Shown here: piece after piece, positions 2,539 to 49,529 of the stretch
How the letters are laid out: each line of letters opens with the position of its first letter
Position numbering within the stretch: position 1 is the first letter of the stretch
From: a virus
Virus record (IMG/VR): IMGVR_UViG_3300030104_005320
Location: 51,904 to 115,903 of that record
DNA length: 64,000 nucleotides
Direction: 5' to 3' (one strand)
The notes under the pieces: generated by a model
The model's database searches: none
What the model saw: only the letters and a program-made list of their open reading frames with translations
What the model was told of the DNA's origin: nothing
Program-made: the position numbers and the translations under genes

Positions 2539-4767
2539 ATGCAAGTCGCAAAAAGAGACGGAGACAAAGAAGAGTTCTCCGTAGAGAAGATTCATAAAGT
2601 AGTGGAGTGGGCTACAAACGGTATAAATGGAGTGTCCTTTTCAGATATCGAAATGAACGCCAATCTATCTTTATATGATGGCATATCTACTACAGAAATT
2701 CATCAGATACTTATTAAGTCCGCCAACGATCTTATATCAACATCGACTCCCAACTATCAATATGTTGCAGCTAGACTTTTAAATATGCAATTGAGAAAAC
2801 AGGTATGGGGCTGTGGAGACGAGGCTACGCCCTTTGCTTTGTTTCTAGAGAGAAATGTTGATAACGGAATATACGATCCTTCGGTTCTGGAAAAATGGAC
2901 CGCTGAAGATGTTGAAGTGTTTTGCAATTACATTAATCACGAACGGGACGATTTGTTTACATATGCTGGGTTACAGCAGATGATAGATAAATACTTGGTA
3001 AAAAACAGAAGCACTGGCAGGATATATGAAACACCACAATTTGCTTATATGTGTATAGCCATGTGTTTATTCGAAACTACTTCAGAAGTAAAGAACGCAT
3101 ATGACTGCTACTCCACGTTTCAAATCAATCTGCCCACCCCGATTATGGCGGGCGTTAGAACTAACATACGGCAGTTTGCTTCTTGTGTTCTTGTTGATGT
3201 TGATGATAACTTGGATGGTATTTTTAGTAGTATACACGCCGTTGGAAAATACACTGCAAGGCGGGCGGGGATCGGGCTCAACATCGGAAGAATGAGGCCA
3301 ATCAATTCGCCCATCAGAGGCGGCGAGGTTATCCACACTGGCCTCATACCATATCTTAAAAACTTTGAGTCCGCTGTAAAGTCAACAAGCCAAAACGGCT
3401 TACGTGGCGGTTCGGCCACTGTTCATGTTCCTTTCTGGCATTATGAAATTGAAGATATTATGGTTCTCAAAAACAATGCGGGCACAGACGATAATAGAGT
3501 AAGAAAGCTTGACTACTCTATACAGTTTTGTAAGTTGTTTTACGAAAGGCTTGTTGCCAATGAAGACATAACGCTGTTCAGCCCCAACGAAGCCAAGGGT
3601 CTTTATGAAGCCTTTGGAGACAATGAAAAGTTTGAAGAGCTTTATCTTAAATACGAAGAATCTAAAAGTCTTAAGTTTAGAAAAAAGATTTCCGCTAGGA
3701 AGTTGGCCGAGATTTTTGCGAGGGAAAGATTGGAGACGGGACGAATATACTCTATGAACATTGACACCGCAAATGAACACGGATCTTGGGATGTTCCTTG
3801 TTATATGTCTAATTTATGTCAAGAGATCATACATCCAACAGTACCAATTAAATCTATAGACGATCCAAATGGCGAGATTGGAATATGTATTCTTTCTGCT
3901 TTGAATTTGCTAGAATTATCAACCGAGAAAGATATACAAAAAGCATGTCGAATGGCTGTCAGAACTTTAGAGTCTGTTATAGATTATCAAGACTATCCAG
4001 TTATAGCGGGAGAAAACTTTACTAAAAATAGAAGGTCTTTAGGGATTGGTATTACTAATCTAGCTGGCTTCCTAGCTAAAAACAAACTAAAGTACGGAGA
4101 TAAGGAAGCACTTGAATTAGTTCATGAAACGATGGAGCAGATTCAATGGAACCTCCTCAATGCCAGTTGTGATCTAGCAAAAGAAAAGGGTGCATGTGCT
4201 AAGTTCCACGAGACAAAATACGCAAGAGGATTGCTGCCGGTTGACTGGTACAAAAAGACTGTTGATGAATTGGTTAAGCCAAACTACAACATGGACTGGG
4301 AGAGCTTAAGAAAGAGAATAGAAAAATATGGACTAAGACATTCTACTCTGTCGGCAATCATGCCTTGTGAGTCCTCTAGCGTCATTCAGAACAGCACAAA
4401 CGGCATTGAGCCTGTACGTAGCTTGCTTTTATACAAGAAGGCTAAAAACGGAATATTGAAACAATTAGTGCCAAATTATCATATGAGAAAAAAATACTAC
4501 ACTATGGCTTGGGAAATGACCGATAACAAAGGTATGATGGACACAGCCGCTGTAATACAGAAGTTTGTAGACATGAGTATGAGCACTAATTTGTACTACA
4601 ACTATTCGCACCATGAAGATGGCAATGTTCCCTTGAGCACGTTGATTAGAGATCAAATATACGGATATAAATACGGATTGAAAAATTTCTATTACGCCAA
4701 TACTCCAGATGGAGATGGCGATACAGAAAAAGAAATGAATTGTGAATCAGGAGCCTGTGCGATATAA
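2539..4767 (+). CDS. nrdA: ribonucleoside-diphosphate reductase class Ia alpha subunit
   Basis: N-terminal ATP cone (VAKRDG), PTPIMAG, FASCVL, SNLCQEI active site, C-terminal CESGACAI. Confidence 0.97.
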   Translation: MQVAKRDGDKEEFSVEKIHKVVEWATNGINGVSFSDIEMNANLSLYDGISTTEIHQILIKSANDLISTSTPNYQYVAARLLNMQLRKQVWGCGDEATPFALFLERNVDNGIYDPSVLEKWTAEDVEVFCNYINHERDDLFTYAGLQQMIDKYLVKNRSTGRIYETPQFAYMCIAMCLFETTSEVKNAYDCYSTFQINLPTPIMAGVRTNIRQFASCVLVDVDDNLDGIFSSIHAVGKYTARRAGIGLNIGRMRPINSPIRGGEVIHTGLIPYLKNFESAVKSTSQNGLRGGSATVHVPFWHYEIEDIMVLKNNAGTDDNRVRKLDYSIQFCKLFYERLVANEDITLFSPNEAKGLYEAFGDNEKFEELYLKYEESKSLKFRKKISARKLAEIFARERLETGRIYSMNIDTANEHGSWDVPCYMSNLCQEIIHPTVPIKSIDDPNGEIGICILSALNLLELSTEKDIQKACRMAVRTLESVIDYQDYPVIAGENFTKNRRSLGIGITNLAGFLAKNKLKYGDKEALELVHETMEQIQWNLLNASCDLAKEKGACAKFHETKYARGLLPVDWYKKTVDELVKPNYNMDWESLRKRIEKYGLRHSTLSAIMPCESSSVIQNSTNGIEPVRSLLLYKKAKNGILKQLVPNYHMRKKYYTMAWEMTDNKGMMDTAAVIQKFVDMSMSTNLYYNYSHHEDGNVPLSTLIRDQIYGYKYGLKNFYYANTPDGDGDTEKEMNCESGACAI

Positions 4768-6335
4768 TGTGCGGTATAGCAGCATACGTTGGTAAAGATA
4801 ACGCATTTGATTTTATATCTAAAGCGTTGATCAAAATGGAATACCGTGGCTATGACAGCTACGGTATGCTTATAGAGAACGAAGAACATAAAGCTCTTGG
4901 TGCTCCGTCTGAAAGTATGCCAAAATTCATAGAAGGAAATAGAGGAATAGGGCACACACGATGGGCCACTCATGGCGAAGTAAGTATCAAAAACTGCCAC
5001 CCTGTTACTTATCTTGGTTGTCATGTTGTTCATAACGGCACAGTCGCAAATGAAAAGTACCACCGAACTAGACAGAGAGCTGACTATAACACCGAAACAG
5101 ACACAGAAATAATCGCTTGCGAGCTTTATAGAAGTATTAAGCTACATAAGGCAATTGAAAATCTAGATAGTATAGGAAGTTTTGTGGCTATGGTTGATTC
5201 AGTTTCTGGCCTAGCCGTCTATAGAGGGTCTAGTCCTCTTTATTATCAGGATGGAAAAATAGCTAGTGACTTAAGAGCCTTTGAGGGAAAAGTTTGTGTC
5301 ATACCAGAAAATACATTCTGCATGATCGACGACAGGTTTAGCCCTCCTGAATCGTGGGCAACCGTTGAAGTCGAGAAAGAGATCGAAGGCCATATAGAAT
5401 GTCATATGAAACACGAGATTTTATCTCAGTCGTCAATTATGAAAAATTTACAATTAACAAACACTAGAATCTTAGCGGGCAATCCTAGAGTAAAGCTGGT
5501 CGCTTGTGGCAGTAGTTATTATGCTGCTATGATGGCGGCACATTTTATGAACACCCAAGGGGGCTATGATGCAACTGCGGTATATGCCACAGAGTTTGTG
5601 TTCACGGGCCATGAAGGCACTATAATATTTATTAGCCAGAGCGGAGAAACCAAAGACGTTATAGACGCACTAAAATCAGTCTTGGACAGCCCCAAGTCTT
5701 GGAAGTCTTCTATTGATCCGGGCGGTTATGAAAAACTACCAATACATATTTTACAAAACAAAAAAGAATCTACACTGTCACAGTTGTGCGACCATTGCAA
5801 AGTGGTAAACATTGGTGTGGGCTTAGAGGTTGGAGTAGCGGCCACAAAGACATTTACATCTACTGTTCTACAGCTATCATCAATGGCTGGAATGGAAGTG
5901 GATTTGAATAGTGTATCTTCTTCGTTAAATTGGCACGATGAAGAACGGCAAAGTTATCTCGCACAAACCGTGAGCAAATATAAAAATGCTCTTATATTAG
6001 GCTCTGGAGAATTTTATCCTATAGCCTTAGAGGCGGCCCTGAAGCTAAAAGAAGTTGCATACCTGCACGCAGAAGCCATACCAGCAGACGAGATCAAACA
6101 TGGCCCTATTGCTTTGATAGATGAAAATACAATTTCTATTGTTATTGGAGATATTGATGATAGAATTGAAAACAACGTTAAACAAATAGAGTCTCGTGGA
6201 GGTAAAGTCATAAGACTTAACAATGGCCTCTGGGAAACTCTAGTAGAATTGCAATATCTTTCCTGCGATGTAGCGTTGCTTCGTGGGATAAATCCTGACA
6301 GACCAAGAAACTTAGCGAAAACGGTAACAGTATGA
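4767..6335 (+). CDS. glmS: glutamine--fructose-6-phosphate aminotransferase
   Basis: MCGI Ntn cysteine, EYRGYDS, GHTRWATHG, HNG, SQSGET, AATKTF, HGPIALID, PRNLAKTVTV terminus. Confidence 0.95.
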   Translation: MCGIAAYVGKDNAFDFISKALIKMEYRGYDSYGMLIENEEHKALGAPSESMPKFIEGNRGIGHTRWATHGEVSIKNCHPVTYLGCHVVHNGTVANEKYHRTRQRADYNTETDTEIIACELYRSIKLHKAIENLDSIGSFVAMVDSVSGLAVYRGSSPLYYQDGKIASDLRAFEGKVCVIPENTFCMIDDRFSPPESWATVEVEKEIEGHIECHMKHEILSQSSIMKNLQLTNTRILAGNPRVKLVACGSSYYAAMMAAHFMNTQGGYDATAVYATEFVFTGHEGTIIFISQSGETKDVIDALKSVLDSPKSWKSSIDPGGYEKLPIHILQNKKESTLSQLCDHCKVVNIGVGLEVGVAATKTFTSTVLQLSSMAGMEVDLNSVSSSLNWHDEERQSYLAQTVSKYKNALILGSGEFYPIALEAALKLKEVAYLHAEAIPADEIKHGPIALIDENTISIVIGDIDDRIENNVKQIESRGGKVIRLNNGLWETLVELQYLSCDVALLRGINPDRPRNLAKTVTV

Positions 6336-7402
6336 AAACTATTTTTAACACTAAAAATGTAGATCCAATGAGCCAGCCCCTCTTTCTAGGAAAAGATTTG
6401 GGTGTTCAGCGATATGATATTATAAAGTATCCTGTGTTTAAAGGTCTTGATAGTAAGCAAATGATGAACTTTTGGAGACCAGAAGAAATCGAACTCAAGA
6501 AAGACCGAGGCGATTTTAAAGAGATGTCTGACAATGAGAAGTTTATCTTTACATCCAATCTCAAATACCAAACGATGCTTGATAGCGTCATCTGTCGCGG
6601 CGTTCCAACTCTTCTAGAGTACGTAACAAATACAGAACTAGAAGCCTGCATGATGACTTGGCAGTTCTTTGAGAAGATTCACAGCCAGTCTTACTCGTAC
6701 ATTATCCAGAACGTATATGCAGATAGCTCAGAAGTATTCGGAGGGATATACGAAGACAAAGAGATTATGAAAAGGGCAAAGAGTGCCATGGATGATTACA
6801 ATAATCTTATGGGGATGGCTTGCGAGTCAACTAAACTGACAGACCTGAAAAAGCAGATCTATATGACTATTGTAAGCATTAACATATTAGAAGCCGTTAG
6901 ATTTTATGTGTCGTTTATTTGCTCCTTTGCCTTTGCAGAAAACAAAAAGATGGCCGGAAATGCCGACATCATAAAGCTAATCAAAAGAGATGAAGCGTTA
7001 CACCTAGCTAACACTCAAGAGATATTGAAAATATTACACAAAGAAGATAGCGAAGGTTTTGTGAAGGTGGCCCGACAATGCCAAGATGCAGCTTGTGAAA
7101 TGTTTGAAAACGCCGCACACGAAGAGAAGCAGTGGGCATCTTATTTGTTTAAGGATGGTTCTATTCTAGGGCTAAACGAGACAGTCTTACACCAGTACAT
7201 TGACTGGCTTTGCATGTCTAGAAGAAAGGCTATCGGTTTGCCATATGAAAGCGTAGGTAAAAATCCAATCGCTGGCTGGACCGGTCCTTGGATGAGCAGT
7301 GAGTCTGTTCAGGTTGCACCACAAGAGCATGAAATTACTAGCTACAAGATTGGAGCCAGCAGAAACGATTTAGAAGATGTGGACTTTGCAGGACTTTTAT
7401 AG
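6332..7402 (+). CDS. nrdB: ribonucleoside-diphosphate reductase class Ia beta subunit
   Basis: FWRPEE, EKIHSQSY (radical Tyr), EAVRFYVSF, RDEALH, QVAPQE. Confidence 0.97.
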   Translation: MKTIFNTKNVDPMSQPLFLGKDLGVQRYDIIKYPVFKGLDSKQMMNFWRPEEIELKKDRGDFKEMSDNEKFIFTSNLKYQTMLDSVICRGVPTLLEYVTNTELEACMMTWQFFEKIHSQSYSYIIQNVYADSSEVFGGIYEDKEIMKRAKSAMDDYNNLMGMACESTKLTDLKKQIYMTIVSINILEAVRFYVSFICSFAFAENKKMAGNADIIKLIKRDEALHLANTQEILKILHKEDSEGFVKVARQCQDAACEMFENAAHEEKQWASYLFKDGSILGLNETVLHQYIDWLCMSRRKAIGLPYESVGKNPIAGWTGPWMSSESVQVAPQEHEITSYKIGASRNDLEDVDFAGLL

Positions 7403-7414
7403 TGGAGAACCGTT

Positions 7415-7771
7415 ATGGAAATGAAAAGAACTAGCGTAAATCTTTTTACATTCACGGAAAAGGGAAAAGGCAAACTAGAAATGGTGGTTCTTTCAAATAA
7501 AAAAGGATACTATGGAATTATAGAAAACGTGTTTGTTGAGCAAGAGTTCAGAAGGAGAGGCATAGCCGCTAAACTTATTAACGAGGCTAAATGTTTAGCC
7601 GAAACTCTAAAGCTTTATAAAATTGTTTTGACATGCAGTAAGGACTTAATTGAGTTTTACGAAAATTGTGGGTTTGAATGGCAGCAAGACGGTCAAGCAT
7701 ACTGCATGAGATCTGACTTCAAACAAAATATAAATGTTCCAATAAGGAAAACAAATGAAGAACAAAGTTGA
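7415..7771 (+). CDS. GNAT acetyltransferase, glucosamine-6-phosphate N-acetyltransferase (GNA1)-like
   Basis: GIIENVFV..FRRRGIA acetyl-CoA motif; YKIVLTCS..LIEFYENCGF resembles the GNA1 C-terminal motif; glmS nearby. Confidence 0.7.
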   Translation: MEMKRTSVNLFTFTEKGKGKLEMVVLSNKKGYYGIIENVFVEQEFRRRGIAAKLINEAKCLAETLKLYKIVLTCSKDLIEFYENCGFEWQQDGQAYCMRSDFKQNINVPIRKTNEEQS

Positions 7772-8423
7772 ACTGCTAGGATATTACGGATCAGATGAGA
7801 CTATAGCTTGTAGTGCTTGGACTAGCACTAGTCGTGATTTAACAGACGATAAAAAAGCAAGAATCCCCAAACTGATTGATATGCTATGGAGCAACGGCCA
7901 TGAAACACCATTCGAGAAGGGTACTGTTCATTTTCTTGTTGATACTGATATTGCCACTCATATACACCTACTTAAGCATAGAGTTTCTTCGCTTAATGCT
8001 GAATCAGCTAGATATAAAGAATTAAAAGAAGACAAATTTTATCTACCTCTAGACTGGGGGGAAACTAGAGTCGGATCTTCTTCAATACCAAGGCTCGCAA
8101 TAACCGGAGAGCATAGGTGGGTAGATATACTTGCCCAATACACAAACATAGGAAACGAGCTTTATCACAAATGTATTGATGATCTAACTCCGGTAGTTGG
8201 AAGAAAAAGAGCTAAAGAATCTGCAAGATTTTTCAAAACATATAACTCGCAAATTCAGGCTGACGTTATGTTTAACATGAGAAGTTTTGCAAACTTTCAA
8301 AAATTAAGAAATCACAAAGACGCACAGTTAGAAATTAGGGATATAGCTGTTGGGATGTTGGAACTGGTAAAAAACATAGAAGGACAACCATTCAAACATA
8401 CTTTAAAATCTTGGAATTATTAG
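7755..8423 (+). CDS. thyX: flavin-dependent thymidylate synthase
   Basis: GHETPFE, KHR-x-S...ESARY ThyX motif, ESAR, AQLEIR. Confidence 0.92.
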   Translation: MKNKVELLGYYGSDETIACSAWTSTSRDLTDDKKARIPKLIDMLWSNGHETPFEKGTVHFLVDTDIATHIHLLKHRVSSLNAESARYKELKEDKFYLPLDWGETRVGSSSIPRLAITGEHRWVDILAQYTNIGNELYHKCIDDLTPVVGRKRAKESARFFKTYNSQIQADVMFNMRSFANFQKLRNHKDAQLEIRDIAVGMLELVKNIEGQPFKHTLKSWNY

Positions 8424-8425
8424 CC

Positions 8426-8611
8426 ATGAATATAAACATATTAAAACAAAATCTAAGAACACTAAAGAAGGACTCTCAAAAAATACAAGAGCTGACGGGC
8501 AAAGAACCATCTGAAGATGGATATCTTATGCTAGGTATCAAAAATCTAGAACTAATCATAGGGAATATTATATTTAAAGACGCCATAAAGGAGTCTAACC
8601 CCAACAAATAA
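8426..8611 (+). CDS. small hypothetical protein
   Basis: Fills the gap between thyX and the next gene; ATG at 8426 preferred. Confidence 0.5.
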   Translation: MNINILKQNLRTLKKDSQKIQELTGKEPSEDGYLMLGIKNLELIIGNIIFKDAIKESNPNK

Positions 8612-8636
8612 GACTGAAGAAAGGAAACGTGATATT

Positions 8637-9032
8637 ATGACAAACGACCACATAGCTAGAATGAACATGAGAGAAAAATTCATCAAACAAAAAAAATGCG
8701 AAAAATCAAATTGCTGTAGAACCACAACACGAGAAACGCTTCAAACCTACATTAGACTAGTGACTCAGTGGCATAAAGACAGAAATCTTATAGAAGGCAG
8801 CACAGATAAAGACCAAACTCTTAAATTAATGCAAGAACTTGGTGAACTTTCTGACTCCGTGTGTAAAAATAAAGACGTAAAAGACGACATTGGAGACATG
8901 TTGGTTGTTATGATAAATATAGCCGAAAGAAACGGCATTTCTTTAACGGACTGCCTAGAAACAGCTTGGAACGACATCAAGGACAGAAAAGGCAGGATGG
9001 TTGATGGTATTTTCGTCAAAGAAGGCGATTAA
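8637..9032 (+). CDS. MazG-like nucleoside triphosphate pyrophosphohydrolase
   Basis: WHKDRNL, KLMQELGEL, DDIGDMLVV, AWNDIKDRKG..VDGIFVKE. Confidence 0.85.
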   Translation: MTNDHIARMNMREKFIKQKKCEKSNCCRTTTRETLQTYIRLVTQWHKDRNLIEGSTDKDQTLKLMQELGELSDSVCKNKDVKDDIGDMLVVMINIAERNGISLTDCLETAWNDIKDRKGRMVDGIFVKEGD

Positions 9033-9266: not shown

Positions 9267-10538
9267 ATGACCTCGATCTTTTCTGTTCCTAATGATAGAG
9301 TTTTCTACGCCTGTATAGGTGTCTTCTTTAGAGAAAGACAAACCACACAAACCGGAGGAGACAGCAATCTAAGCGGAACTATTTTTTTGGACGGTGTTCA
9401 ATCTGTTGGAATAGATTCTTCATTTCCTAAAACTAGCTATTTAGACATTGGAAGAGCACAAAGAGTCCACTCTTCGTATGATAAACAAGAATTTACTATA
9501 AATATTGAAAGAAATATACCATACGAAACCGGCAGGGCGGACGACGAGAATACTGGCACTTTCTACACTTCTGCCGGAACCAGCTATGAAGCTACCCACA
9601 TACTAAACGATGACAACATAGGATCTGCCGGTTTTGAAAACTCACTAAGAAACTATGACATAGTTTTAGTTTACGCACCAGACAGAATAGATACTTTGGG
9701 CGGAGGAACCTCTGGAAGCGATGTAGACAAGAATAAATTCATGGCAACTATTTATAGATGTTGTCTTCTAACCTCAATGTCATATAATATTGCTGTAAAT
9801 GGCCCAGTAACAGAAACGCTAACATTTACTACAAGAGTTGCCAACCAGATTGATGCAAGCAGTTTAAACTGGTCAACTCTCTCACTACCAGATAATGGTG
9901 CCGCCGTTACTGGTAAAGTTCTTAAAAGAGATCATATAGATACTACAAATTCTGTTTTGCCAACAGAAGTTACTAGAATGTTTAATTTAGGAACATCTGA
10001 CAAGGGGCTGCCGGTTTTAGGTCTCCAGAATATAGAGATAGCCGCTTCAATCAATTACAGCGACATGCTTGACGTGGGACAATGGAGAGGTTCTAACTTG
10101 TCCGGGGGCTCTCTGTCTAAAGCTCTTACTAGTAATCCCGCCAAAACGATAACTGAATCCGCAGGCAGCGATGCCAAACGAGCGGAGGAAAATTTATATC
10201 GTCAAGTAATACTTCCCGTGGAAGTTACGGCTTCTTTTACCGGAGTAGCTAGAACACAATACAGAGCCGGTGGCTATCAAGATTTTGAGTTAGACAACGA
10301 CACATTTAGTGATACAGAAATAGCTATTGCGACATTGGCTCTAGCTGACGGAGGAACAAAAAGAGTGCAATGGAATTTAGGAAAAAAGAACTATTTAACA
10401 GACATTAGTTATACAGGAGGAGACACAGGAGGAGGAAATGTGGAAGCGACATTATCTTTTCAAAATGACAGAAGCGATTTTGTCGTTTTAGAAAACGCAA
10501 GCGTTTTATCAATCGACCCCGGCTCTACAGTTTATTAA
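9267..10538 (+). CDS. putative virion structural protein (tail tube-like)
   Basis: GVQSVGI, LTSMSYNIAVNG..TETLTF and LTDISYTGGDTGGGNVEATLSF beta-strand patterns; S/T/G-rich. Confidence 0.55.
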   Translation: MTSIFSVPNDRVFYACIGVFFRERQTTQTGGDSNLSGTIFLDGVQSVGIDSSFPKTSYLDIGRAQRVHSSYDKQEFTINIERNIPYETGRADDENTGTFYTSAGTSYEATHILNDDNIGSAGFENSLRNYDIVLVYAPDRIDTLGGGTSGSDVDKNKFMATIYRCCLLTSMSYNIAVNGPVTETLTFTTRVANQIDASSLNWSTLSLPDNGAAVTGKVLKRDHIDTTNSVLPTEVTRMFNLGTSDKGLPVLGLQNIEIAASINYSDMLDVGQWRGSNLSGGSLSKALTSNPAKTITESAGSDAKRAEENLYRQVILPVEVTASFTGVARTQYRAGGYQDFELDNDTFSDTEIAIATLALADGGTKRVQWNLGKKNYLTDISYTGGDTGGGNVEATLSFQNDRSDFVVLENASVLSIDPGSTVY

Positions 10539-10547
10539 AGGAATGAA

Positions 10548-11222
10548 ATGGCTAGAAAGCAAAAAAGAACAACTAGCAAAAAATCTCCAATTCGACCTTC
10601 TCGCAAAAAATTAAAACCTAAAACAGAAAACCAAGAAGAATATATCAGATCAATGGTTGAGTCAGATGTTACATTCTGCTCCGGCCCAGCGGGATCTGGT
10701 AAAACGGCAGTAGCTGTTGGACTGGCTTGTGAATACATGCTAGAAAACAAGATAGAAAAAATAATAATCACAAGACCCGTTGTAGAATCTGGTAGAGGTC
10801 TTGGCTTTTTACCCGGAACATTAACTGAAAAAGTGCAACCGTATCTTGTGCCTATAACTGAAGAAATGAAGCTATATTTAGGCAGAGACACATACAACTC
10901 AATGAGGTCAATAAACGCTATTGAAATTTGTCCTCTTGAATATATGAGAGGTAGAAACTTTCATAACTCTTTTATGATATTAGACGAAGCTCAAAACGCG
11001 ACTTTCGAGCAAATAAAAATGTTCTTAACGAGAATAGGGCTTGGATCAAAGGCTGTAATCAACGGAGACCTAGATCAAACAGACCTACGCGGGGAATCTG
11101 GCGGCCTAGACTGCTGTATGTCTAGATTGTCCGGCCTAAGAGGGCTGGCCATATGTGAACTAGACCAGTCTGATATCGTTCGCAACGGAATAATATCTAG
11201 TATTTTAGACAGACTTCGCTAA
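10548..11222 (+). CDS. phoH: PhoH family ATPase
   Basis: GPAGSGKT, IIITRP, LGFLPG, YMRGRNF, ILDEAQN, GDLDQTD. Confidence 0.95.
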   Translation: MARKQKRTTSKKSPIRPSRKKLKPKTENQEEYIRSMVESDVTFCSGPAGSGKTAVAVGLACEYMLENKIEKIIITRPVVESGRGLGFLPGTLTEKVQPYLVPITEEMKLYLGRDTYNSMRSINAIEICPLEYMRGRNFHNSFMILDEAQNATFEQIKMFLTRIGLGSKAVINGDLDQTDLRGESGGLDCCMSRLSGLRGLAICELDQSDIVRNGIISSILDRLR

Positions 11223-29628: not shown

Positions 29629-30355
29629 AGTAGCTATTATTTGTGCTAATTACAACTATGGAAATTTTGTCATAGACGCAGTAAAGAGTATTGAAAATCA
29701 AACCTATAAAGGTCCAATAAGAATATATGTTGTAGATGACGGATCTTCGGACGACTCTTTGGAAAAACTGACATCATATTCTGAAGAAAAAAACGACAAG
29801 GATAAGTATCACTTTATTAGAATAAAAAACTCTGGAGCAAGTGTCGCAAGGAATACAGCCATAAATGCGGCTTGGCACTGGGCAGATATTTTTGGTATAT
29901 TAGACTCGGACGACGCATATTACCCTGAAAAGATAGAAAAGCTAGTAGCCAAACTTGTCGAACATAAAGAAGTAGGAGTGGCATACGCTGACTACAAAAA
30001 TGTATCTCCTGTTTTTTCTAAAAGAGAATTCAAAACCGCTTATGATAAAATAACCTTACTCCAAAGATGTATTGTTCACAGCAATTCGCTAATTAAAAAA
30101 GAATACTTAGAAAAAGTCAGACTACCAAACGGAGAGTTTTTTGACAGCAAGTTACACGGTCCAGCTAGCGAAGGGTTCATAGGATGCACAGAAGACTATG
30201 ATTTATGGCTTAGACTTTCTAATCATTGCATTATCACGCATGTTCCAGAATGTCTGGCTATAGCCAATCAACACGATAATAACCAGTCTAAAAAAATGAC
30301 TCCTGAAATATTCCAAAAAAACGCCCAAACCATAAGACAAAGAGCGGGTATTTAA
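29618..30355 (+). CDS. GT2 glycosyltransferase
   Basis: ANYNYG, VVDDGSSD, GASVARN, LDSDD, EDYDLWLR. Confidence 0.93.
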   Translation: MLPKVAIICANYNYGNFVIDAVKSIENQTYKGPIRIYVVDDGSSDDSLEKLTSYSEEKNDKDKYHFIRIKNSGASVARNTAINAAWHWADIFGILDSDDAYYPEKIEKLVAKLVEHKEVGVAYADYKNVSPVFSKREFKTAYDKITLLQRCIVHSNSLIKKEYLEKVRLPNGEFFDSKLHGPASEGFIGCTEDYDLWLRLSNHCIITHVPECLAIANQHDNNQSKKMTPEIFQKNAQTIRQRAGI

Positions 30356-31065
30356 TGGCCAGATTTGTAACTAAAATAACAAACAAAAAAACACCGACTT
30401 TTCTAAAGGGAGATCTGGCTGTTGCTATTCTTTCTGCCGGAAGTGGCAGCAGAATCAGATCTTACGAACCGAGAAGCCTACTTAAAATAGGAAACGAATC
30501 TCTAATTGATCATCAAATTAAAACGGTCAATCAATGTTTTGAAGACCCTGAAATAATTAGTGTTATTGGCTGTCACGCAAAAAAAATAATAAAAAAGACA
30601 AAAGGCAAAACACGTATAATAGAAAATCAACTACACGAAACTAGCAACTCTTCAGAGAGTTTGAGGCTAGCATTTAATAGCACGTTGAAAAAAAGTATGC
30701 TTTTCATGCATGGAGATCTTTATTTCAACGAAGGCACACTAAAAACGCTAGACTACAGTAAGTCGTTTATTATAATAGATACCAAAAATCAAATGAAAGA
30801 CAACGAAGTAGGTGTAACAATATCAGAGGGTAGTGCCGCAATAATGTCTTACGGCCTACCAACTAAATGGGCACAGATAGCCTTTTTGACAGGAAGAGAA
30901 TATAAAATATTAAAAAATATTTTTAACAAATATGAAACGCATGATAAAAAGAAATTGTCTTTTGAGATTATAAATATGATTATTAACATGGGTGGCAAGT
31001 TTTCGTGTCACGAACCGGAAAAAATGTCTATAGTCGAAATAGACAGAATAAAGGATATTAAATGA
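30355..31065 (+). CDS. NTP transferase (LicC/MobA-like nucleotidyltransferase)
   Basis: AILSAGSGSRI..PRSLL, NSSESL, MHGDL. Confidence 0.75.
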   Translation: MARFVTKITNKKTPTFLKGDLAVAILSAGSGSRIRSYEPRSLLKIGNESLIDHQIKTVNQCFEDPEIISVIGCHAKKIIKKTKGKTRIIENQLHETSNSSESLRLAFNSTLKKSMLFMHGDLYFNEGTLKTLDYSKSFIIIDTKNQMKDNEVGVTISEGSAAIMSYGLPTKWAQIAFLTGREYKILKNIFNKYETHDKKKLSFEIINMIINMGGKFSCHEPEKMSIVEIDRIKDIK

Positions 31066-38990: not shown

Positions 38991-39693
38991 TAATATAAAC
39001 TTACACTTAATCGGCAAGAAGTATTTAGATACATTGCTATATGTAGATAATCTTAATTTGTCAGAAACCAACGAGACTAAGCAAGTCAGGGAATGCTTGG
39101 GCGGTATTTATAACATAAAAGACTTGGATAGTGTATCCCCAATATATTCTCCCGTAGGAGAAAAAAGAGCGATAGTTATAAGCGAAAAGGAAAAGTCTAG
39201 AAGGACATCGATTGTAAGAGAAGTAAAATCAATCAAAGCAAAAGACAGCTACAATCTATGTAAAAATTTAGTAGTAAATTCTGATTGGACTCATGTGGCA
39301 TATATCGATGATGTAGCACTGCCTCATACTTTGCAGCCAAACAGCGTTGATTTTTGCACCAGCAAAGATAGAAGGCGGTTTTCAAAAAAACTAAATAAAT
39401 GCATACTTGCATTTGACTCTAGAGAAAGAAAGCATCTTTATAATGGCTTAGACCTAGATACAATTATTGTGTTGCATGACGAGCATGGCTGTGAAGCCAT
39501 ATTTAAAAATCTAGTTATATGCAAGTACGAAAACAATCCAGTGAAGAATTTACACGTAAATGGTGCTGGAGATATATTCGCGGCAGTGTTTATTAGAGAG
39601 TATTTAAAATCGAATTTAACAAGTGCCGTAAAATATAGTTGTGAAATAACAACACACATTTTAAAGAAAAGACAAACAAATGAAAAAGTATAA
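38977..39693 (+). CDS. divergent PfkB-family sugar kinase
   Basis: C-terminal anion-hole motif VNGAGDIFAA. Confidence 0.65.
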   Translation: MYTNNNINLHLIGKKYLDTLLYVDNLNLSETNETKQVRECLGGIYNIKDLDSVSPIYSPVGEKRAIVISEKEKSRRTSIVREVKSIKAKDSYNLCKNLVVNSDWTHVAYIDDVALPHTLQPNSVDFCTSKDRRRFSKKLNKCILAFDSRERKHLYNGLDLDTIIVLHDEHGCEAIFKNLVICKYENNPVKNLHVNGAGDIFAAVFIREYLKSNLTSAVKYSCEITTHILKKRQTNEKV

Positions 39694-40840
39694 CCTACTA
39701 ATACCAATGGCCGGAAAGGCCCAGAGATTTGCCGACAAGGGCTATAAGATGCCCAAGCCATTAATAATGGCAAAGAACAAGCACGTCATAGACTGGGCCA
39801 TGGACTCAATCGAAACAAAAGACTGTAATATAATTTTCCAAGTTAGGCTTGACCATATAAATAACTTTTCTATCGACAAGATACTTAAGAAAAAATTCGG
39901 AAATGATATTAGTATTGTGGTAGTTGACCACGACACAGAAGGCTCTGTCTGCACTTGTATGTTGGCTAGAGACCTGATAGATAATGATTTGCCATTAATA
40001 ATCTATACTCCAGATGTATATTTTGGCCCAAAATTCAACCCCAATGATATATCGGAAGAATTAGATGGCTTTCTGTTAACGTTTAAAGCGAACAGCCCCG
40101 CTCATAGTTATGTAGAGCTAAACGAAGAAGGATATGCGATTAAGACCGCTGAGAAGCAGGTTCTTAGTTCCAATGCCGCCGTTGGAGTTTACTACTACAA
40201 GACAGGATCGCTGTTTGTTAAGCACGCAGAAGAAATGATAGCGGCTAATATAAAAACGAAGAACGAATTTTACATTTGTCCCATGTTTAATACTATAATT
40301 AGAGATGGCGGCAAAGTGGGAATAAAAACAGTAGACAAGATGCACGTTCTAGGAACTCCGGGAGAGCTTGAGTTTTTTGTTAGAAATGTTTCTTGGACAT
40401 TTGGAGAGCGTCCTATAGCCTTGTGCGGAGATCATTCTGGATGGGATAAAAAAGAAGCGACAAAATTAATACTTGAAAATATGGGAATTGATTATATCGA
40501 TTTTGGGTGCTACGTACAAAAGGACTCAGACTATCCTGATTTTGTAACACAGGCGGCACAAGCCATACGAGATCAAATATGCGATTTTGGATTAGGCTTT
40601 TGTAGAACGGGACAGGGAGTCAATATGTGTGCAAATCATCACGGCTTAAGGTCTGCACTTGTGTTTAATGATTATACTGCCGAAATGGCGGTACGTCACA
40701 ACTGTGCCAATTTCTTTGGAATGTCCTCAAAGTATATCACCACAGAAGATATTAAGGTTATTATTAACACGATTAGAAGCCATTCATTTGATGGCGGTAG
40801 ACATATGAGTAGGATGTCGGAGGTTCTAAATGATAGTTGA
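39680..40840 (+). CDS. nucleotidyltransferase (BcbE-like) fused to RpiB/LacAB sugar-phosphate isomerase
   Basis: LIPMAGKAQRF..GYKMPKPLI, EFYICP, LGTP; then IALCGDHSG, DYPD, FCRTGQG, AVRHNCAN, FDGGRH. Confidence 0.88.
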   Translation: MKKYNLLIPMAGKAQRFADKGYKMPKPLIMAKNKHVIDWAMDSIETKDCNIIFQVRLDHINNFSIDKILKKKFGNDISIVVVDHDTEGSVCTCMLARDLIDNDLPLIIYTPDVYFGPKFNPNDISEELDGFLLTFKANSPAHSYVELNEEGYAIKTAEKQVLSSNAAVGVYYYKTGSLFVKHAEEMIAANIKTKNEFYICPMFNTIIRDGGKVGIKTVDKMHVLGTPGELEFFVRNVSWTFGERPIALCGDHSGWDKKEATKLILENMGIDYIDFGCYVQKDSDYPDFVTQAAQAIRDQICDFGLGFCRTGQGVNMCANHHGLRSALVFNDYTAEMAVRHNCANFFGMSSKYITTEDIKVIINTIRSHSFDGGRHMSRMSEVLNDS

Positions 40841-41402
40841 TCACGACAGCAAGTTTATATTTGTAGCTGTCGCTAAAACCGCGTCTACATCGATACACAG
40901 AAGCTTTGGATACACTCAAGACCCAGAGCCTAAAATATATCACATGCACTTAAAAGATATAATCAAAACAAATCCAGAAGCAAAGGATTATTTTAAATTT
41001 GGCTTTGTTAGAAATCCATATGATAGACTTGTTAGTGCTTATCATGATTTCAAATATTCCAAACATCACCCATGGGCCTCTGCGATTTATCAATATTCTA
41101 CATTTAAAGATTTTGCATTAAACTTGCATAATAGTCCTTGTAGGGATTTTATTCATTTAAGGCCGCAGTTCGAATATCTGGAACTCAACGGCGAATTGGG
41201 CGTTGATTTCGTTGGAAGGTTTGAACATCTGAACGATGACTTCAGGTTAGTACAGGAACTAATAAATATTGAAGATAGGTCTTTAGGTAGAGATAGATTA
41301 TCTTCTCATGAGGAATATACAACATACTACGACACAGAAACGAAAAATACTGTATATGAACTTTACAGAAAAGACTTTGAGGTATTTGGATATGAGAAAT
41401 AA
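40830..41402 (+). CDS. sulfotransferase (Sulfotransfer_2 family)
   Basis: FIFVAVAKTASTS (5'-PSB), FVRNPYDRLVSAY (3'-PB), H.RPQ, GRFE, Y.KDF..FGY. Confidence 0.88.
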   Translation: MIVDHDSKFIFVAVAKTASTSIHRSFGYTQDPEPKIYHMHLKDIIKTNPEAKDYFKFGFVRNPYDRLVSAYHDFKYSKHHPWASAIYQYSTFKDFALNLHNSPCRDFIHLRPQFEYLELNGELGVDFVGRFEHLNDDFRLVQELINIEDRSLGRDRLSSHEEYTTYYDTETKNTVYELYRKDFEVFGYEK

Positions 41403-42120
41403 ATTACTTCAACAGTGTGAAGCATCATATAAAAGATATGAAAAGAGCGTCAGAGATGTCAGCCCCCGCAATGGGTGTATGTTAAAGGCTGAAAACTTTT
41501 GTTTCTGCTGTATGTGTGAATTGTATTCAGTAGATGTGATTATAGAAACCGGTGTGTTTTTTGGAGCCTCGACAGAAATGTTCGCAAGATATTTTGAAGG
41601 ATCTGAAACCGAAATACATGCTATAGATATATCTTGGCCAGATGGCCTGCAAGAAAAATTACAATCATACAAAAATATTAAAGAAACATATTGTGCAGAT
41701 GGCACACAAAAGATTTTAGAGTTAATAACAAAATTTAAAGATAAAAAAATAGCGGTTTTTATAGACGGGCCAAAAGGCGAACAGCAACTATCTTTGGCTA
41801 AAAAAATAATAAATTCTGTAGAGTTTGTGGCACTTCATGACGTAGGTAGAGAATATTGTATGTATACAGCAGAACCACAAGTCGAAGTAGAAACGCATGA
41901 TAATTTCGTTGAGTGGGACCGGTCTATGTTTATCACAACTGAAGACTGGTTTGCCAATAAGTATTCACACATGAATATTGAACAGCTTAGATGGCTTCAG
42001 AAAAAAGACACGAGATGGGAAAAAAGAAACGATGGATACGACGAAAGTTTGTGGAATCCAATTTTAGATAAGATCACTCCTAACGGCTTTGGTCTTGGCA
42101 TAGCAATGAAAGCAACTTGA
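41392..42120 (+). CDS. putative class I SAM-dependent methyltransferase
   Basis: IIETGVFFGAST, AID, FIDGPK, LHD. Confidence 0.7.
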   Translation: MRNKLLQQCEASYKRYEKSVRDVSPRNGCMLKAENFCFCCMCELYSVDVIIETGVFFGASTEMFARYFEGSETEIHAIDISWPDGLQEKLQSYKNIKETYCADGTQKILELITKFKDKKIAVFIDGPKGEQQLSLAKKIINSVEFVALHDVGREYCMYTAEPQVEVETHDNFVEWDRSMFITTEDWFANKYSHMNIEQLRWLQKKDTRWEKRNDGYDESLWNPILDKITPNGFGLGIAMKAT

Positions 42121-42137
42121 GTTCATTAAGTGGAATC

Positions 42138-42746
42138 ATGATAATTAATCACAACAAAAGATTTATATTTGTGGCTGTAGCAAAAACTGCATGTACATCA
42201 ATACGTAGGAGTCTTGGATATACTAAAGATCCGCTACCCCTTAGATATCACATGAACTTAAAGGACATGATAAACCAAAACCCTGAAACTGAAAACTACT
42301 TTAAATTTGGTTTTGTTAGAAATCCTTACTATAGGCTGGTTAGTGCTTTTTTTAATTTTAGAAATTCAAACACACATGGATCAATACCGCCATATTACGT
42401 GCCTTTCTATGAATACAATAACTTTAGAGATTTTGTATTAGACCTAGATAAAATGGCTGAAAAAATCATACATCTAAAAACCCAATATGATTATTTAGAG
42501 TATAAGGGGGGTGTTGGCGTTGATTTTGTTGGAAGATTTGAGAATCTAAATGAAGATTTTGAAACTGTAAAATCTTTAATTGGTATAGAATCAGAGCCTC
42601 TTGGTATACACAGACAACATGTAAGCGGGCTCAATGGAGTCGCAAGAAAATCTGATAACTATATGGATGAGTATGACGAAGAAACAAAAGAAATAACTTA
42701 CCGGTTTTACAAAAAAGACTTTATGGAGTTTGGTTATGAAAAGTAA
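42138..42746 (+). CDS. sulfotransferase (paralogue of 40830-41402)
   Basis: FIFVAVAKTACTS, FVRNPYYRLVSAF, GVDFVGRFE, YKKDF..FGYEK. Confidence 0.88.
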   Translation: MIINHNKRFIFVAVAKTACTSIRRSLGYTKDPLPLRYHMNLKDMINQNPETENYFKFGFVRNPYYRLVSAFFNFRNSNTHGSIPPYYVPFYEYNNFRDFVLDLDKMAEKIIHLKTQYDYLEYKGGVGVDFVGRFENLNEDFETVKSLIGIESEPLGIHRQHVSGLNGVARKSDNYMDEYDEETKEITYRFYKKDFMEFGYEK

Positions 42747-44966: not shown

Positions 44967-45819
44967 TTATTCTTGGGTTCCTAATTCTACCCTATATTTT
45001 AATTCGTTTATAGACGCCGGATATGACTGCGATATCGTAGACGAAATAAGCATAAATCATTGGGAGCCTAAAGATAAGTATAAAGTTGTAGTTGTATACC
45101 TACATTGCGATGGGCCTGTGGCAACAATAAACTATTGGTTAGACAATTATTTTCAAGACTGTTTTCTTATACAGCATGACACCACGGATCATGAGCAAAT
45201 ACAACCATGGACCAATAGAACTCCAGATCTAATTATGCAAAGAGAACTGTTTGACGGAACTCAGAATCCAGACAATATACCTATAGAACCATTTCATTTT
45301 CCCATACCGTCTGTCTATGATGATTCATACGAACAAATTAATGATGTAATGTTTTATGGATGTATGACTAATGAGATACGTAGACCGTTTACCGAAAAGA
45401 TATTGGAGCTATCTCAAGGCTCTCTCAAACATCTAAAGTGGGATATAAAAGTAACCGGCAGCGGCGATAGAACTCCAGAAGAATACAGAAAAGCGATTAA
45501 CCAGTGTAAGATAGGACTACATTACTTTGGCAACTCTAGAGACTCGATTCGAATATGGGAAATAGCAAGCACTAAAGCGGCGATAATTATGCCAAAACTA
45601 AGAATGAAATCTACGTCAGAAGGATACATGCCCTTCACGGAGTACGAAACAATAGAAGATAACTTTTCGGATCTAGAACAAAAAATACTTTACACACTTG
45701 AAAACGATAGGTGGAAAAATCTAGGAGAAGAATCTTTTCAGGCTTTTGAACAGCGACACTCCCCGGACCACTGCTTTAACTATTATCACAACGCCATAAG
45801 AAAGCATATACAAATATGA
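44944..45819 (+). CDS. putative GT-B glycosyltransferase (Glyco_trans_1_2/exostosin-like)
   Basis: DVMFYG...R, EYRKAINQCKIGL..GNSRDSIRIWE. Confidence 0.6.
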   Translation: MKDFLFFNYSWVPNSTLYFNSFIDAGYDCDIVDEISINHWEPKDKYKVVVVYLHCDGPVATINYWLDNYFQDCFLIQHDTTDHEQIQPWTNRTPDLIMQRELFDGTQNPDNIPIEPFHFPIPSVYDDSYEQINDVMFYGCMTNEIRRPFTEKILELSQGSLKHLKWDIKVTGSGDRTPEEYRKAINQCKIGLHYFGNSRDSIRIWEIASTKAAIIMPKLRMKSTSEGYMPFTEYETIEDNFSDLEQKILYTLENDRWKNLGEESFQAFEQRHSPDHCFNYYHNAIRKHIQI

Positions 45820-47195
45820 TAAAATTAATTGCCTTCGATCTAGATGGCGTGCTAGTAGACGCTAGAGATCTTCATTACATGGCATTCAATCTTGCACTAA
45901 GAGATATAGATTCTTCTTATGAAATACCTAGAGAAGAACATCTATCAACTTATGACGGACTTCCTACTAATAAAAAACTAAAGATGTTGACTGAGAGAAA
46001 AGGTCTCGACCCGCAAAAACATGATCTAATCTGGAAAAAGAAACAGTCCAAAACAATAGATATAATCAATAACATGAAGCCAGATCATGATATGATACAA
46101 GTCTTAAAGACTCTAAAATCAAAGGGGTATATCATACATGTGTGTTCGAACTCAGTTAAGAATACGATAAAAATGATGCTGATTAGAAGAGGTCTTATTG
46201 AGTTTGTAGACGAAATATTCTCGAACGAAGACGTTAAAAGCCCAAAGCCAAGTCCAGAAATATACCTTCGTAGCATGGTAGCTGCTGGCGTTTGTCCTAA
46301 AGAGACACTAGTGGTTGAAGACTCTCATATAGGCAGAAAAGCCGCAATTGAGTCTGGTGCATTTTTGTGTCCCGTTAGGAATACCATGGACGTAACGCTT
46401 CGGAATATAGAAGACTCCATATCTGAAGCGGAAAGCAAAACAAAACAAGTAAGACCAAAGTGGCAGGGAGGTAAAATGAATATCTTAATACCAATGGCGG
46501 GGGCGGGATCGAGATTCGAAAAAGCTGGATATACTTTTCCCAAGCCTCTGATTGACGTGGATGGGAAGCCGATGATACAGGCCGTAGTTGATAACTTAAA
46601 TATTGACGCTAAACATATTTTTATTGTGCAAAAATCACATTATGATAGGTATAATCTTAATAATGTATTGTCGTCTATATCTCCTGACTGTGAAATTATA
46701 CAAGTAGATGGAATAACAGAAGGGGCGGCCTGCACAACGCTCTTGGCTAAAGATTTAATTAACAACGACGAACCCCTGCTGATGGCTAACTCAGACCAGT
46801 TTGTGGAATGGGACTCTAATCAATTTATGTATTCTATGATAGGAGACACTATTGACGCTGGAATGGCCACATTTAAATCTACACATCCAAAGTGGAGTTA
46901 TGCAAGACTGGATGCTAAAGGCTTTGTTTGTGAGGTCGCAGAGAAAAATCCGATCAGCGATATAGCGACGGTGGGAATCTACTACTGGTCTAAAGGTAGC
47001 GATTATGTCAAGTACGCCGAACAAATGATAGATAAGGATATAAGGGTCAATAACGAATTTTACGTCTGTCCCGTGTTTAATCAGGCTATAGAAGATGGTA
47101 AAAAAATAAAAACGTTCAATATAGAAAAAATGTGGGGTCTAGGAACCCCTGAAGACTTGAATCATTATTTAAACAACTACAAAGGCCAACAATGA
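45816..47195 (+). CDS. HAD hydrolase (beta-PGM/CbbY-like) fused to BcbE-like nucleotidyltransferase
   Basis: FDLDGVLVD, CSN, KPSP, VEDS..G; then LIPMAGAGSRF..GY.FPKPLI, TEGAA, NSDQ, EFYVCP, GLGTPEDL. Confidence 0.88.
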   Translation: MIKLIAFDLDGVLVDARDLHYMAFNLALRDIDSSYEIPREEHLSTYDGLPTNKKLKMLTERKGLDPQKHDLIWKKKQSKTIDIINNMKPDHDMIQVLKTLKSKGYIIHVCSNSVKNTIKMMLIRRGLIEFVDEIFSNEDVKSPKPSPEIYLRSMVAAGVCPKETLVVEDSHIGRKAAIESGAFLCPVRNTMDVTLRNIEDSISEAESKTKQVRPKWQGGKMNILIPMAGAGSRFEKAGYTFPKPLIDVDGKPMIQAVVDNLNIDAKHIFIVQKSHYDRYNLNNVLSSISPDCEIIQVDGITEGAACTTLLAKDLINNDEPLLMANSDQFVEWDSNQFMYSMIGDTIDAGMATFKSTHPKWSYARLDAKGFVCEVAEKNPISDIATVGIYYWSKGSDYVKYAEQMIDKDIRVNNEFYVCPVFNQAIEDGKKIKTFNIEKMWGLGTPEDLNHYLNNYKGQQ

Positions 47196-47653
47196 AAAAT
47201 ATATCAGCCATAGTGAAAGATCTTTCTGTGTCTCAAAAGTCTTTTTACCTTATTAAAGAGTTTAATAAGTATTTAACAAACACAGATCTATCGGCGTGCG
47301 TATTCTTTGAAAGGCCATCTATACCTCCGGTCCCAACTAATTTTGCGTGTAAAAGCGTTACATATCTATCTAATTACAACGGTATAGCGATAGCCACAAC
47401 AATCAAAGACGCAGAAAAAATACTAAAAATTAGCAGCTCTAGCACAAAATACTTATATTTGTGGGACATGGAATGGCTAGAGCAACCTTTATACTTTAGG
47501 AAAGCCATGGCGATACTTAGAGACCCAAGGCTAAAAATAATAGCCAGAAGCGAATCACAAGCAGAGGCTATAGAAAATTTCTGCAATAAAAGTGTGGTAG
47601 GCATTGTGTCTGATTGGAACGCTGATCAGCTTTTACAAATATTAGGAGATTAA
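47192..47653 (+). CDS. hypothetical protein (possible GT-B N-terminal fragment)
   Basis: KYLYLWDMEW, IIARS; coupled ORF. Confidence 0.55.
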   Translation: MKNISAIVKDLSVSQKSFYLIKEFNKYLTNTDLSACVFFERPSIPPVPTNFACKSVTYLSNYNGIAIATTIKDAEKILKISSSSTKYLYLWDMEWLEQPLYFRKAMAILRDPRLKIIARSESQAEAIENFCNKSVVGIVSDWNADQLLQILGD

Positions 47654-47656
47654 CAA

Positions 47657-48430
47657 ATGAAATCAATAGATGAATCATATGTTATAAAGAGATATACAGA
47701 GGGTAGTAGCACTATTTCAATAGCCAAAGAGCTTGATACATATCCTAAAAAAATAGAAAGAATATTAAAGAAAAATGGAGAACCCTTGAGGAGCCGATCT
47801 GAGTCTCAGTCTTTAGCCATAAAAAACGGCAGGACAAAACATCCGACAAAAGGCACAACAAGAAGTGAAGAAGACAAGATGAAAATTAGCTTAGGAGTTG
47901 AAAAGGCTTGGAAAGAAATGCCAGATGAGCAGAGAAAAAAATTCATAGATTCCGCTAAAGATAGGTGGGATAAAATGAGTCCCGAAAAAAGAAGGGAAAT
48001 GCAAGAGAAGGCAGGGAGAGCTTTAAGGCTAGCTTGTATAGAAGGATCTAAGCAAGAAAAATTTCTAAAGCAAAAACTTCAAGATATTGGCTATGAAGTC
48101 ATAATGCACAAAAAAGGACTAATTGAAGGAAATTTTGAAATAGACTTGCTTTTACCTGAGATCAACACTATAATAGAGGTAGATGGTCCTCAACATTTTC
48201 TGCCATTATTTGGGGAATCCAAGTTAGCTGAAACAATAAAAATGGACAGTATAAAAAACGGAAGACTTATTTCTAAAGGGTTTTGTGTTATAAGGGTTAA
48301 ATATCTATGTAGAAATATGAACAAAAGCGTAGAAAGAAAGTTGTGGAATTTAGTTTCTGAAAAGGTGGGCGACATAAAAGAAGAGTTCCCATCCGAATCT
48401 AAAAGATTTATTGAATTGGAGATTAGCTAA
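47657..48430 (+). CDS. homing-endonuclease-like protein (HTH/NUMOD3-like plus Vsr/DUF559 nuclease)
   Basis: STISIAKEL HTH, KG..RSEEDKMKIS, FEIDLLLP..IIEVDGPQHF..D..KN. Confidence 0.7.
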   Translation: MKSIDESYVIKRYTEGSSTISIAKELDTYPKKIERILKKNGEPLRSRSESQSLAIKNGRTKHPTKGTTRSEEDKMKISLGVEKAWKEMPDEQRKKFIDSAKDRWDKMSPEKRREMQEKAGRALRLACIEGSKQEKFLKQKLQDIGYEVIMHKKGLIEGNFEIDLLLPEINTIIEVDGPQHFLPLFGESKLAETIKMDSIKNGRLISKGFCVIRVKYLCRNMNKSVERKLWNLVSEKVGDIKEEFPSESKRFIELEIS

Positions 48431-49200: not shown

Positions 49201-49529
49201 TGAAAGTAAAATATCAATCTGGAAAAATATCTGTAGAATTTGATTGCGACACACAGAAAGAGCTTTTTGCTCAGTTGGCATCTTTTCAAGAAGTATTTTG
49301 CGAAACAAAATGCGGCAAGTGTGGGTCAGAGAATTTAAAATTTGTCGTTCGTCAAGTTGACGGGAACGAATATCATGAAATTAGATGTTTGGACTGCGGT
49401 GCGAAGCTACAGTTTGGCGTAAACAAGAAGGGCGGTGCTCTTTTCCCAAAACGCAAAGATAGTGACGGAAACTGGCTACCAGACAAAGGCTGGACAAAAT
49501 GGAACCCAAAAACTAAGAAAGCGGAGTAA
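49200..49529 (+). CDS. zinc-ribbon protein
   Basis: CGKCGS...CLDCGA. Confidence 0.7.
   Translation: MKVKYQSGKISVEFDCDTQKELFAQLASFQEVFCETKCGKCGSENLKFVVRQVDGNEYHEIRCLDCGAKLQFGVNKKGGALFPKRKDSDGNWLPDKGWTKWNPKTKKAE

Follow-up and report, generated by a model that had tools for sequence, protein, structure and literature searches.

A phage operon in which a compact GlmS and a truncated GNA1-family acetyltransferase are interleaved with nucleotide-synthesis genes

The window treated here is the final 64 kb of a virus record in IMG/VR (IMGVR_UViG_3300030104_005320; 115.9 kb, CheckV completeness 75%). This DNA of a marine phage carries on the plus strand five tightly packed genes in which enzymes of deoxynucleotide (dNTP) synthesis alternate with two enzymes of amino-sugar type. 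The genes are nrdA (2539-4767), whose product is the alpha subunit of a class Ia ribonucleotide reductase and has an ATP-cone (NF006578, 925 bits, above cut-off); glmS (4767-6335), encoding a compact glutamine--fructose-6-phosphate aminotransferase of 522 amino acids (aa); nrdB (6332-7402), encoding the class Ia beta subunit (NF006576, 379 bits, above cut-off); a gene for a 118-aa acetyltransferase matching PF13508/PF00583, the mini-GNAT, which corresponds to the core of the GNA1 family (7415-7771); and thyX (7755-8423), encoding a flavin-dependent thymidylate synthase (TIGR02170, above cut-off). In this paper we describe the GlmS and the mini-GNAT, compare them with their cellular and viral relatives, and weigh the proposal that the pair supplies N-acetylglucosamine-6-phosphate (GlcNAc-6-P) for glycan synthesis.

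The order nrdA-glmS-nrdB-GNAT-thyX had been proposed in a first-pass annotation of the sequence and is borne out by the open reading frames (ORFs) and their family matches; the coupling of glmS on both sides, also reported there, can be read directly in the sequence. The TAA of nrdA and the ATG of glmS have a common A at 4767 (TAATG, 4765-4769), with a GGAG 13 nucleotides (nt) upstream, and glmS and nrdB meet in an ATGA at 6332-6335. The nrdB stop codon (TAG, 7400-7402) is followed by a GGAG and then by the ATG of the mini-GNAT at 7415, and the mini-GNAT and thyX genes overlap by 17 nt. By consensus matches alone, a promoter-like site on the plus strand (TTGGCA-18-TATAAT, 2459-2488; sigma-70 consensus score 11/12, the best between 2 and 11.5 kb) stands directly behind a terminator-like hairpin at 2413-2446 and is the probable start of the nrdA-to-thyX transcription unit. 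Downstream of it the first strong terminator comes only after thyX, which makes a single unit plausible. A megablast comparison of 4767-7771 with GenBank phages gave no match.

The GlmS scores below the NCBIfam cut-offs (292 bits against 418 for TIGR01135 and 300 against 381 for NF001484) because of deletions and divergence, and its identity to Escherichia coli GlmS is 28-34%, depending on the aligner. It nevertheless looks fully functional from its residues and its modelled fold. The N-terminus reads MCGI, so that the Cys1 nucleophile is kept; the E. coli glutaminase residues R73, W74, T76, H77, N98, G99 and D123 are all aligned and invariant in the phage family; and S303, S347, Q348, S349, T352, K485, E488, H504 and K603 are likewise conserved. 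The isomerase-domain motifs SQSGETKD, LKLKEVAYLHAE, KHGP and PRNLAKTVTV, the last being the C-terminal tail with K603, are present. An AF2 model (predicted local distance difference test, pLDDT, 85.8) has the two-domain GlmS fold, and Foldseek ranked the E. coli GlmS structures 2j6h and 1jxa highest for it (E 5e-37, TMq 0.62-0.69) and placed human GFAT1 next. The compact family comprises about 18 metagenomic clusters of 505-532 aa with 63-97% identity, the next relatives reaching at most 46%; tblastn against GenBank phages returned only matches of at most 31% identity, apparently mostly to bacterial-type glmS. A phage GlmS is in itself not new, since GlmS families of phages are already in PHROGs and lists of viral auxiliary metabolic genes include glmS. 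An insertion of about 13 residues is a trait of the compact family (window 5700-5740, GlmS residues about 312-325), with pLDDT below 50 at residues 317-321.

The mini-GNAT motif reads LYKIVLTCSKDLIEFYENCGFE, and the signature YKIxLxC...FYEnCGF (here YKIVLTC...FYENCGF), on which the first-pass annotation had relied, was found in the translation. Its family consists of 11 clusters at 90% identity, with three representatives at 50% having E < 1e-30; all 11 clusters have lengths of 102-118 aa and share 39 invariant positions. Compared with a normal GNA1, some 45-60 N-terminal residues are absent. The AF2 model (pLDDT 85) is a beta-beta-beta-alpha-beta-alpha-beta structure without N-terminal helices, that is, the GNAT core beta2-beta4, alpha3, beta5, alpha4 and beta6 lacking beta1-alpha1-alpha2. 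The acetyl-CoA loop R/Q-x-x-G-x-G/A is kept, with R46, G49 and A51 invariant, and the protein matches Pfam Acetyltransf_7/_1. A missed N-terminal extension or a mis-called start was considered and rejected, because the gene begins only 12 nt after nrdB and the N-terminus is uniform across the family. The ratio of nonsynonymous to synonymous substitution (dN/dS) is 0.04 against the copy in Tara contig L081 and 0.20 against that in contig L089; the gene is under strong purifying selection. No member of the mini family was found in 185,579 prokaryote species genomes, a scan of IMG/VR with the mini-GNAT (single sequence and profile) and with its nearest short relative, P0135, gave no match, a search of the ESM Atlas returned just generic short GNAT clusters, and no second GNA1-like gene was found elsewhere in the record. 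The mini-GNAT is restricted to relatives of the window phage.

GNA1 (EC 2.3.1.4) is an obligate strand-swapped homodimer with its active sites at the interface, and prefers glucosamine-6-phosphate (GlcN-6-P) over glucosamine-1-phosphate. On the combined grounds of profile, motif and gene neighbourhood, the mini-GNAT is a true homologue of this enzyme. As a single sequence searched against the PDB, its closest solved proteins are GNA1s (E about 1e-6), and with the A2 family profile the GNA1s of Trypanosoma brucei, yeast, Caenorhabditis elegans, Arabidopsis, human and Aspergillus fumigatus stand at or near the top (E 2.5e-9 to 4e-6), a few other GNATs being interleaved with them and the margin amounting to a few bits. 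An hhalign comparison of the mini family with glmS-linked archaeal GNA1-like proteins gave a probability of 99.8% and E 7.8e-28, mini residues 19-104 corresponding to residues 60-145 of the full-length proteins and both reaching the C-terminus. The next-best matches among 1.8 billion representatives nearly all have GNA1 motifs, and 32 of 148 are no longer than 120 aa. Many proteins of 250-440 aa among these matches (representatives P0134 and P0136-P0141) have two tandem GNA1-like domains, for example one from the choanoflagellate Codosiga, an arrangement that could imitate the GNA1 dimer within one chain.

In C. elegans GNA1, Glu104 and Asp105 bind sugar hydroxyls, Lys136 and Arg164 of the C-terminal strand bind the 6-phosphate, Met161 is the active-site Met, Cys141 is family-specific and Tyr149 stabilises the thiolate leaving group (PMC3413214). 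In the mini-GNAT, Glu104 (yeast E98) aligns with E37, Lys136 with K69, Cys141 (yeast C135) with C74 and the catalytic Tyr149 (yeast Y143) with Y82, each invariant in the mini family. Asp105 (yeast D99) is replaced by N38, an Asn that is also invariant, and Met161/Arg164 are matched by an invariant M98-R99 whose register is uncertain, the phage protein having M-R where GNA1 has M-x-x-R. The identification of the GNAT as GNA1-like stood on profile, motif and gene neighbourhood, with the correction that the protein is a truncated core of 118 aa and not a full GNA1. A comparison of the GNAT with GNA1 by phylogeny, which the same annotation had suggested, came out less clearly: profile and hhalign established the homology to GNA1, and the tree, built on 85 columns, did not place the mini clade.

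A full-length form of the same pair recurs in viruses and in cells. At 80 glmS loci in IMG/VR, a full-length GNA1-like gene lies within 1.7 kb in 13 and directly abuts glmS in 10. In one group of these viral pair loci the neighbouring genes include those for a T4-type terminase, a sigma factor and a GDP-mannose dehydratase; in another they include genes of KdsA-like, FkbM, cupin and GT8-like type. No phosphoglucomutase/phosphomannomutase (PGM/PMM)-type mutase and no NTP_transferase was found in any of five viral pair records, two of which are at least 94% complete, and the viral hexosamine module often ends at GlcNAc-6-P. Contig L017 is a relative of the window phage (44-77% aa identity over many genes when all ORFs of the record were compared with the loci) and carries a full-length GNA1-like and glmS cassette at another site than the window phage. 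There (L017:1608-3610) the GNA1-like gene abuts a glmS of 531 aa between homologues of G000 8414-8947 and 6857-7705; at the same site the window's record instead has a 276-aa ORF.

Among prokaryote genomes the closest full-length group belongs to Nanoarchaeota, Woesearchaeota, Iainarchaeota, Thaumarchaeota, Patescibacteria and Vermiphilus, and the GNA1-like gene of nine of these loci (L096, L101, L104, L106, L107, L108, L111, L113 and L118) has glmS at a distance of no more than about 200 nt. The two genes are direct neighbours in Thaumarchaeota, DPANN, the Candidate Phyla Radiation (CPR) and Vermiphilus. The first-pass annotation had called the route eukaryote-style, a misleading description: among full-length relatives, glmS-linked genes of Thaumarchaeota, DPANN, CPR and other phages stand closest to the mini-GNAT. 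The term is a misnomer because the pair is shared by Thaumarchaeota, DPANN, CPR and Dependentiae. A direct eukaryotic origin of the mini-GNAT was rejected, its nearest relatives being prokaryotic and viral.

Between 24.6 and 55.4 kb the window contains a glycan island of about 30 kb with glycosyltransferases of families GT4, GT2, GT10 and GT7 (an MGAT2-like domain is present in one), two sulfotransferases, an FkbM methyltransferase, a GDP-fucose synthase, a split HldE and a KdsC-like phosphatase. Homologous islands of related contigs also hold the pair. In contigs L047 and L054 the homologues of window 47192-49529, a stretch inside the island, have a glmS/GNA1-like pair directly upstream, and in L057 glmS is flanked by homologues of the island cupin and the GDP-fucose synthase. 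The earlier suggestion that the module feeds the glycan island gained support from these contigs, and the link to glycan synthesis is better supported because the pair is carried inside islands homologous to the window's own. The further claim that GlcNAc is treated as a bulk precursor like dNTPs was overstated, its sole basis being a co-transcription that is itself predicted.

Two island genes on the plus strand are candidates for the later steps. The protein of 236 aa encoded at 30355-31065 (NTP_transf_3) is GlmU-N-like, its best NCBIfam and PDB matches being the uridylyltransferase half of GlmU at scores far below family cut-offs. The gene at 45816-47195 encodes a fusion of a HAD protein of the beta-phosphoglucomutase (beta-PGM) family with a sugar-1-phosphate nucleotidylyltransferase; its HAD half matches Lactococcus lactis beta-PGM (E 2e-16) and TIGR02009 (88 bits), its halves fall in separate PHROGs (phrog_3980 for the nucleotidyltransferase, phrog_29467 and phrog_8468 for the HAD part), and it may be a mutase-plus-activation enzyme. 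A possible consumer is a glycosyltransferase on the minus strand (54034-55428) whose N-terminal domain is weakly MGAT2-like and which also has a GT7 domain. Sulfotransfer_2 genes at 40830-41402 and 42117-42746 suggest a sulfated glycan, and the 386-aa product of 39680-40840 joins a weak RmlA-like nucleotidyltransferase N-half to an RpiB/LacAB sugar-phosphate isomerase domain.

From these comparisons we lean, with a confidence slightly better than even, towards the interpretation that the phage GlmS and the truncated GNA1 form a module making GlcNAc-6-P for glycan synthesis. The nrdA-glmS-nrdB-GNAT-thyX operon would then contain a two-step hexosamine module beside the enzymes of dNTP synthesis. 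The compact GlmS, to judge from its conserved residues and fold, would convert fructose-6-phosphate and glutamine to GlcN-6-P, and the mini-GNAT, probably as a dimer, would acetylate GlcN-6-P with acetyl-CoA to GlcNAc-6-P, a step that would pull flux through GlmS and commit its product to amino-sugar supply. Conversion to UDP-GlcNAc, the uridine diphosphate derivative of N-acetylglucosamine, for the island of about 30 kb would fall to enzymes of the host or of the island, the candidates among the latter being the HAD/nucleotidyltransferase fusion and the GlmU-N-like protein. A bolder version, which we consider unlikely, holds that a GNA1 core reduced to about 100-118 aa, without any of the beta1-alpha1-alpha2 arm, has full GlcN-6-P N-acetyltransferase activity and that UDP-GlcNAc is completed by the non-orthologous HAD-mutase fusion or the GlmU-N-like protein, giving a third, viral hexosamine architecture that works in step with dNTP synthesis and glycosylates virions or host surfaces.

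Several observations weigh against the GlcNAc-6-P interpretation. The structural ones are the Asn in place of yeast Asp99, an E-N pair that is also found in the glmS-linked archaeal homologues; the absence of beta1-alpha1-alpha2, which usually form a wall of the acceptor site in GNATs; a best single fold match to a protein acetyltransferase, AcrVA5 (6iuf); and, from phylogeny, a tree that leaves the mini clade, with its long stem, in a polytomy. The genomic ones concern neighbourhood and pathway. Contig L081 has the same gene order as the window operon, but L001 reads nrdA-glmS-nrdB-mazG-phoH without GNAT or thyX, and no GNA1-like gene lies within 8 kb of glmS in L001, L002 or L003, which carry the closest outside GlmS genes. 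In the relatives L082, L083, L085, L088 and L089 the mini-GNAT is among early genes; the available flanks in L085, L088 and L089 contain no glmS, and in L082 and L083 it is translationally coupled to an ornithine-cyclodeaminase/mu-crystallin gene. The glmS/GNA1-like pairing therefore recurs, but the adjacency of mini-GNAT and glmS is not kept across the phage group. Finally, no AGM1-type (PGM/PMM-type) mutase was found in the 115.9-kb, 75%-complete record.

The principal doubt concerns the acceptor: the truncated enzyme may have kept GlcN-6-P, or it may have switched to a protein or a different amine. AcrVA5 acetylates a lysine of Cas12a, and the mini-GNAT could by analogy acetylate proteins (at lysines or N-termini) in the service of host takeover or anti-defence, its place beside glmS and nrdB being incidental and GlmS alone raising GlcN-6-P for the GlmM and GlmU of the host. 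AcrVA5 is the top Foldseek match (E 1e-6, 27% identity; VIA Z 13.2, 29% identity), it is similarly small (about 92 aa), and in both proteins the acceptor site is opened by the lack of alpha1-alpha2; phage mini-GNATs of about 100-113 aa are common, and the position of the gene among early genes away from glmS in relatives, together with relatives that have GlmS without any GNA1-like gene, would suit such a role. The fold match cannot discriminate the acceptor, however, because all GNAT cores score Z 11-13.5 in the fold comparison. The family profile did not detect AcrVA5 at E <= 0.01 and found six GNA1s at 1e-9 to 1e-6, and neither the GNA1-specific Cys nor the phosphate-binding Lys varies in the mini family; we regard this role as quite improbable. 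Nor do we think it likely that the acceptor is some other small amine (an amino acid or a diamine, for instance) whose carboxylate or phosphate is bound by the invariant Lys and Arg. Loss of the N-terminal third could have shifted acceptor specificity, and the PDB bit scores of the GNA1s (33-40) are only a few bits above those of plant serotonin N-acetyltransferase and of uncharacterised GNATs. In L082 (888-2224; also in L083) a copy with 60% identity overlaps the stop codon of the ornithine-cyclodeaminase/mu-crystallin family gene (PF02423, E 6.5e-64), and this pairing calls for caution on the acceptor. On the other side, the motif set is invariant over the whole mini family, glmS-linked copies included, the window's own record has no ornithine-cyclodeaminase homologue, and the closest full-length homologues are glmS-linked. 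That the gene is a functionless, decaying remnant of a full-length GNA1-like gene can be considered very improbable indeed: about one third of the ancestral domain is gone, but the dN/dS values (0.04 against L081, which led us to reject a pseudogene, and 0.20 against L089), the 39 invariant positions, the uniform length of the 11 clusters, a core modelled confidently at pLDDT 85, and a Shine-Dalgarno sequence and start codon of its own all argue for a working protein.

No account of a GNA1-type acetyltransferase accompanying a phage GlmS came up in the literature that was searched (full text). Many phage contigs have the pairing, with the acetyltransferase full-length in some and truncated in others, and often within large glycan islands. 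If the truncated enzyme uses GlcN-6-P, it would define a minimal catalytic unit of GNA1, and phages would be redirecting amino-sugar supply with the glmS-plus-GNA1 design known from engineered GlcNAc overproduction. It would also provide a handle on how phages feed their own glycosylation machinery, and the textbook division into a eukaryotic and a bacterial order of steps is further weakened. Elsewhere in the window, a 423-aa ORF at 9267-10538, between MazG (8637-9032) and PhoH (10548-11222), has no Pfam or NCBIfam match.

When the two enzymes are set beside known systems, the GlmS resembles that of E. coli (PDB 2j6h, 1jxa; about 609 aa) in its catalytic and substrate-binding residues and its two-domain fold, and differs in being 87 residues shorter; it has lost the interdomain linker together with a helical segment and the hairpin around residues 545-578, and has gained about 13 residues after the SQSGET loop. 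The best sequence-profile matches of the mini-GNAT are eukaryotic GNA1/GNPNAT1 (EC 2.3.1.4; PDB 1i1d, 4ag7, 3t90, 2huz, 2vez and 3i3g), with which it has in common the beta4 Glu, the YK(I/V)xLxC strand with its phosphate Lys and family Cys, the Tyr of FYxxxGF, and a C-terminal strand with Met and Arg, the Arg in uncertain register. In contrast to their 149-190 aa it has 118, it lacks beta1-alpha1-alpha2, it has Asn for yeast Asp99, and its loop before the last strand is 2 residues longer. The GNA1-like proteins that are linked to glmS in Thaumarchaeota, DPANN, CPR and Dependentiae (about 145-150 aa) are 35-43% identical to the mini-GNAT core, have the same IENV variant of beta4 and the same MR(I/L)(N/D)L C-terminus, and are also encoded next to glmS; they differ in being full-length and cellular. 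AcrVA5, the phage anti-CRISPR GNAT, has the same truncated architecture and size as the mini-GNAT without a detectable sequence match at the profile level (E <= 0.01).

Among viruses, the phage cassettes in L017, L047, L054 and the L022-L048 group pair the same two activities, but there the GNAT has about 140-150 aa and abuts glmS, and the glmS is just 31-33% identical to that of the window, which suggests a separate acquisition. In Mimivirus, L316 has been validated by biochemistry as a GlcN-6-P acetyltransferase and is reported to share 50% identity with a Nitrosopumilus homologue, and the UDP-GlcNAc pathway consists of L619 (GFAT), L316 and R689 (UAP) without a GlcNAc-phosphate mutase (PMC9614988). 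The likeness to the window lies in a virus-encoded GlmS/GFAT, an enzyme of GNA1 type and a uridylyltransferase (in the window a candidate) that is short and prokaryote-like, and in the missing mutase; the difference is that Mimivirus is a giant amoebal virus with dispersed genes and a full-length L316 of 148 aa, whereas the window belongs to a phage in which the genes are interleaved with nrdAB and thyX and the acetyltransferase is truncated.

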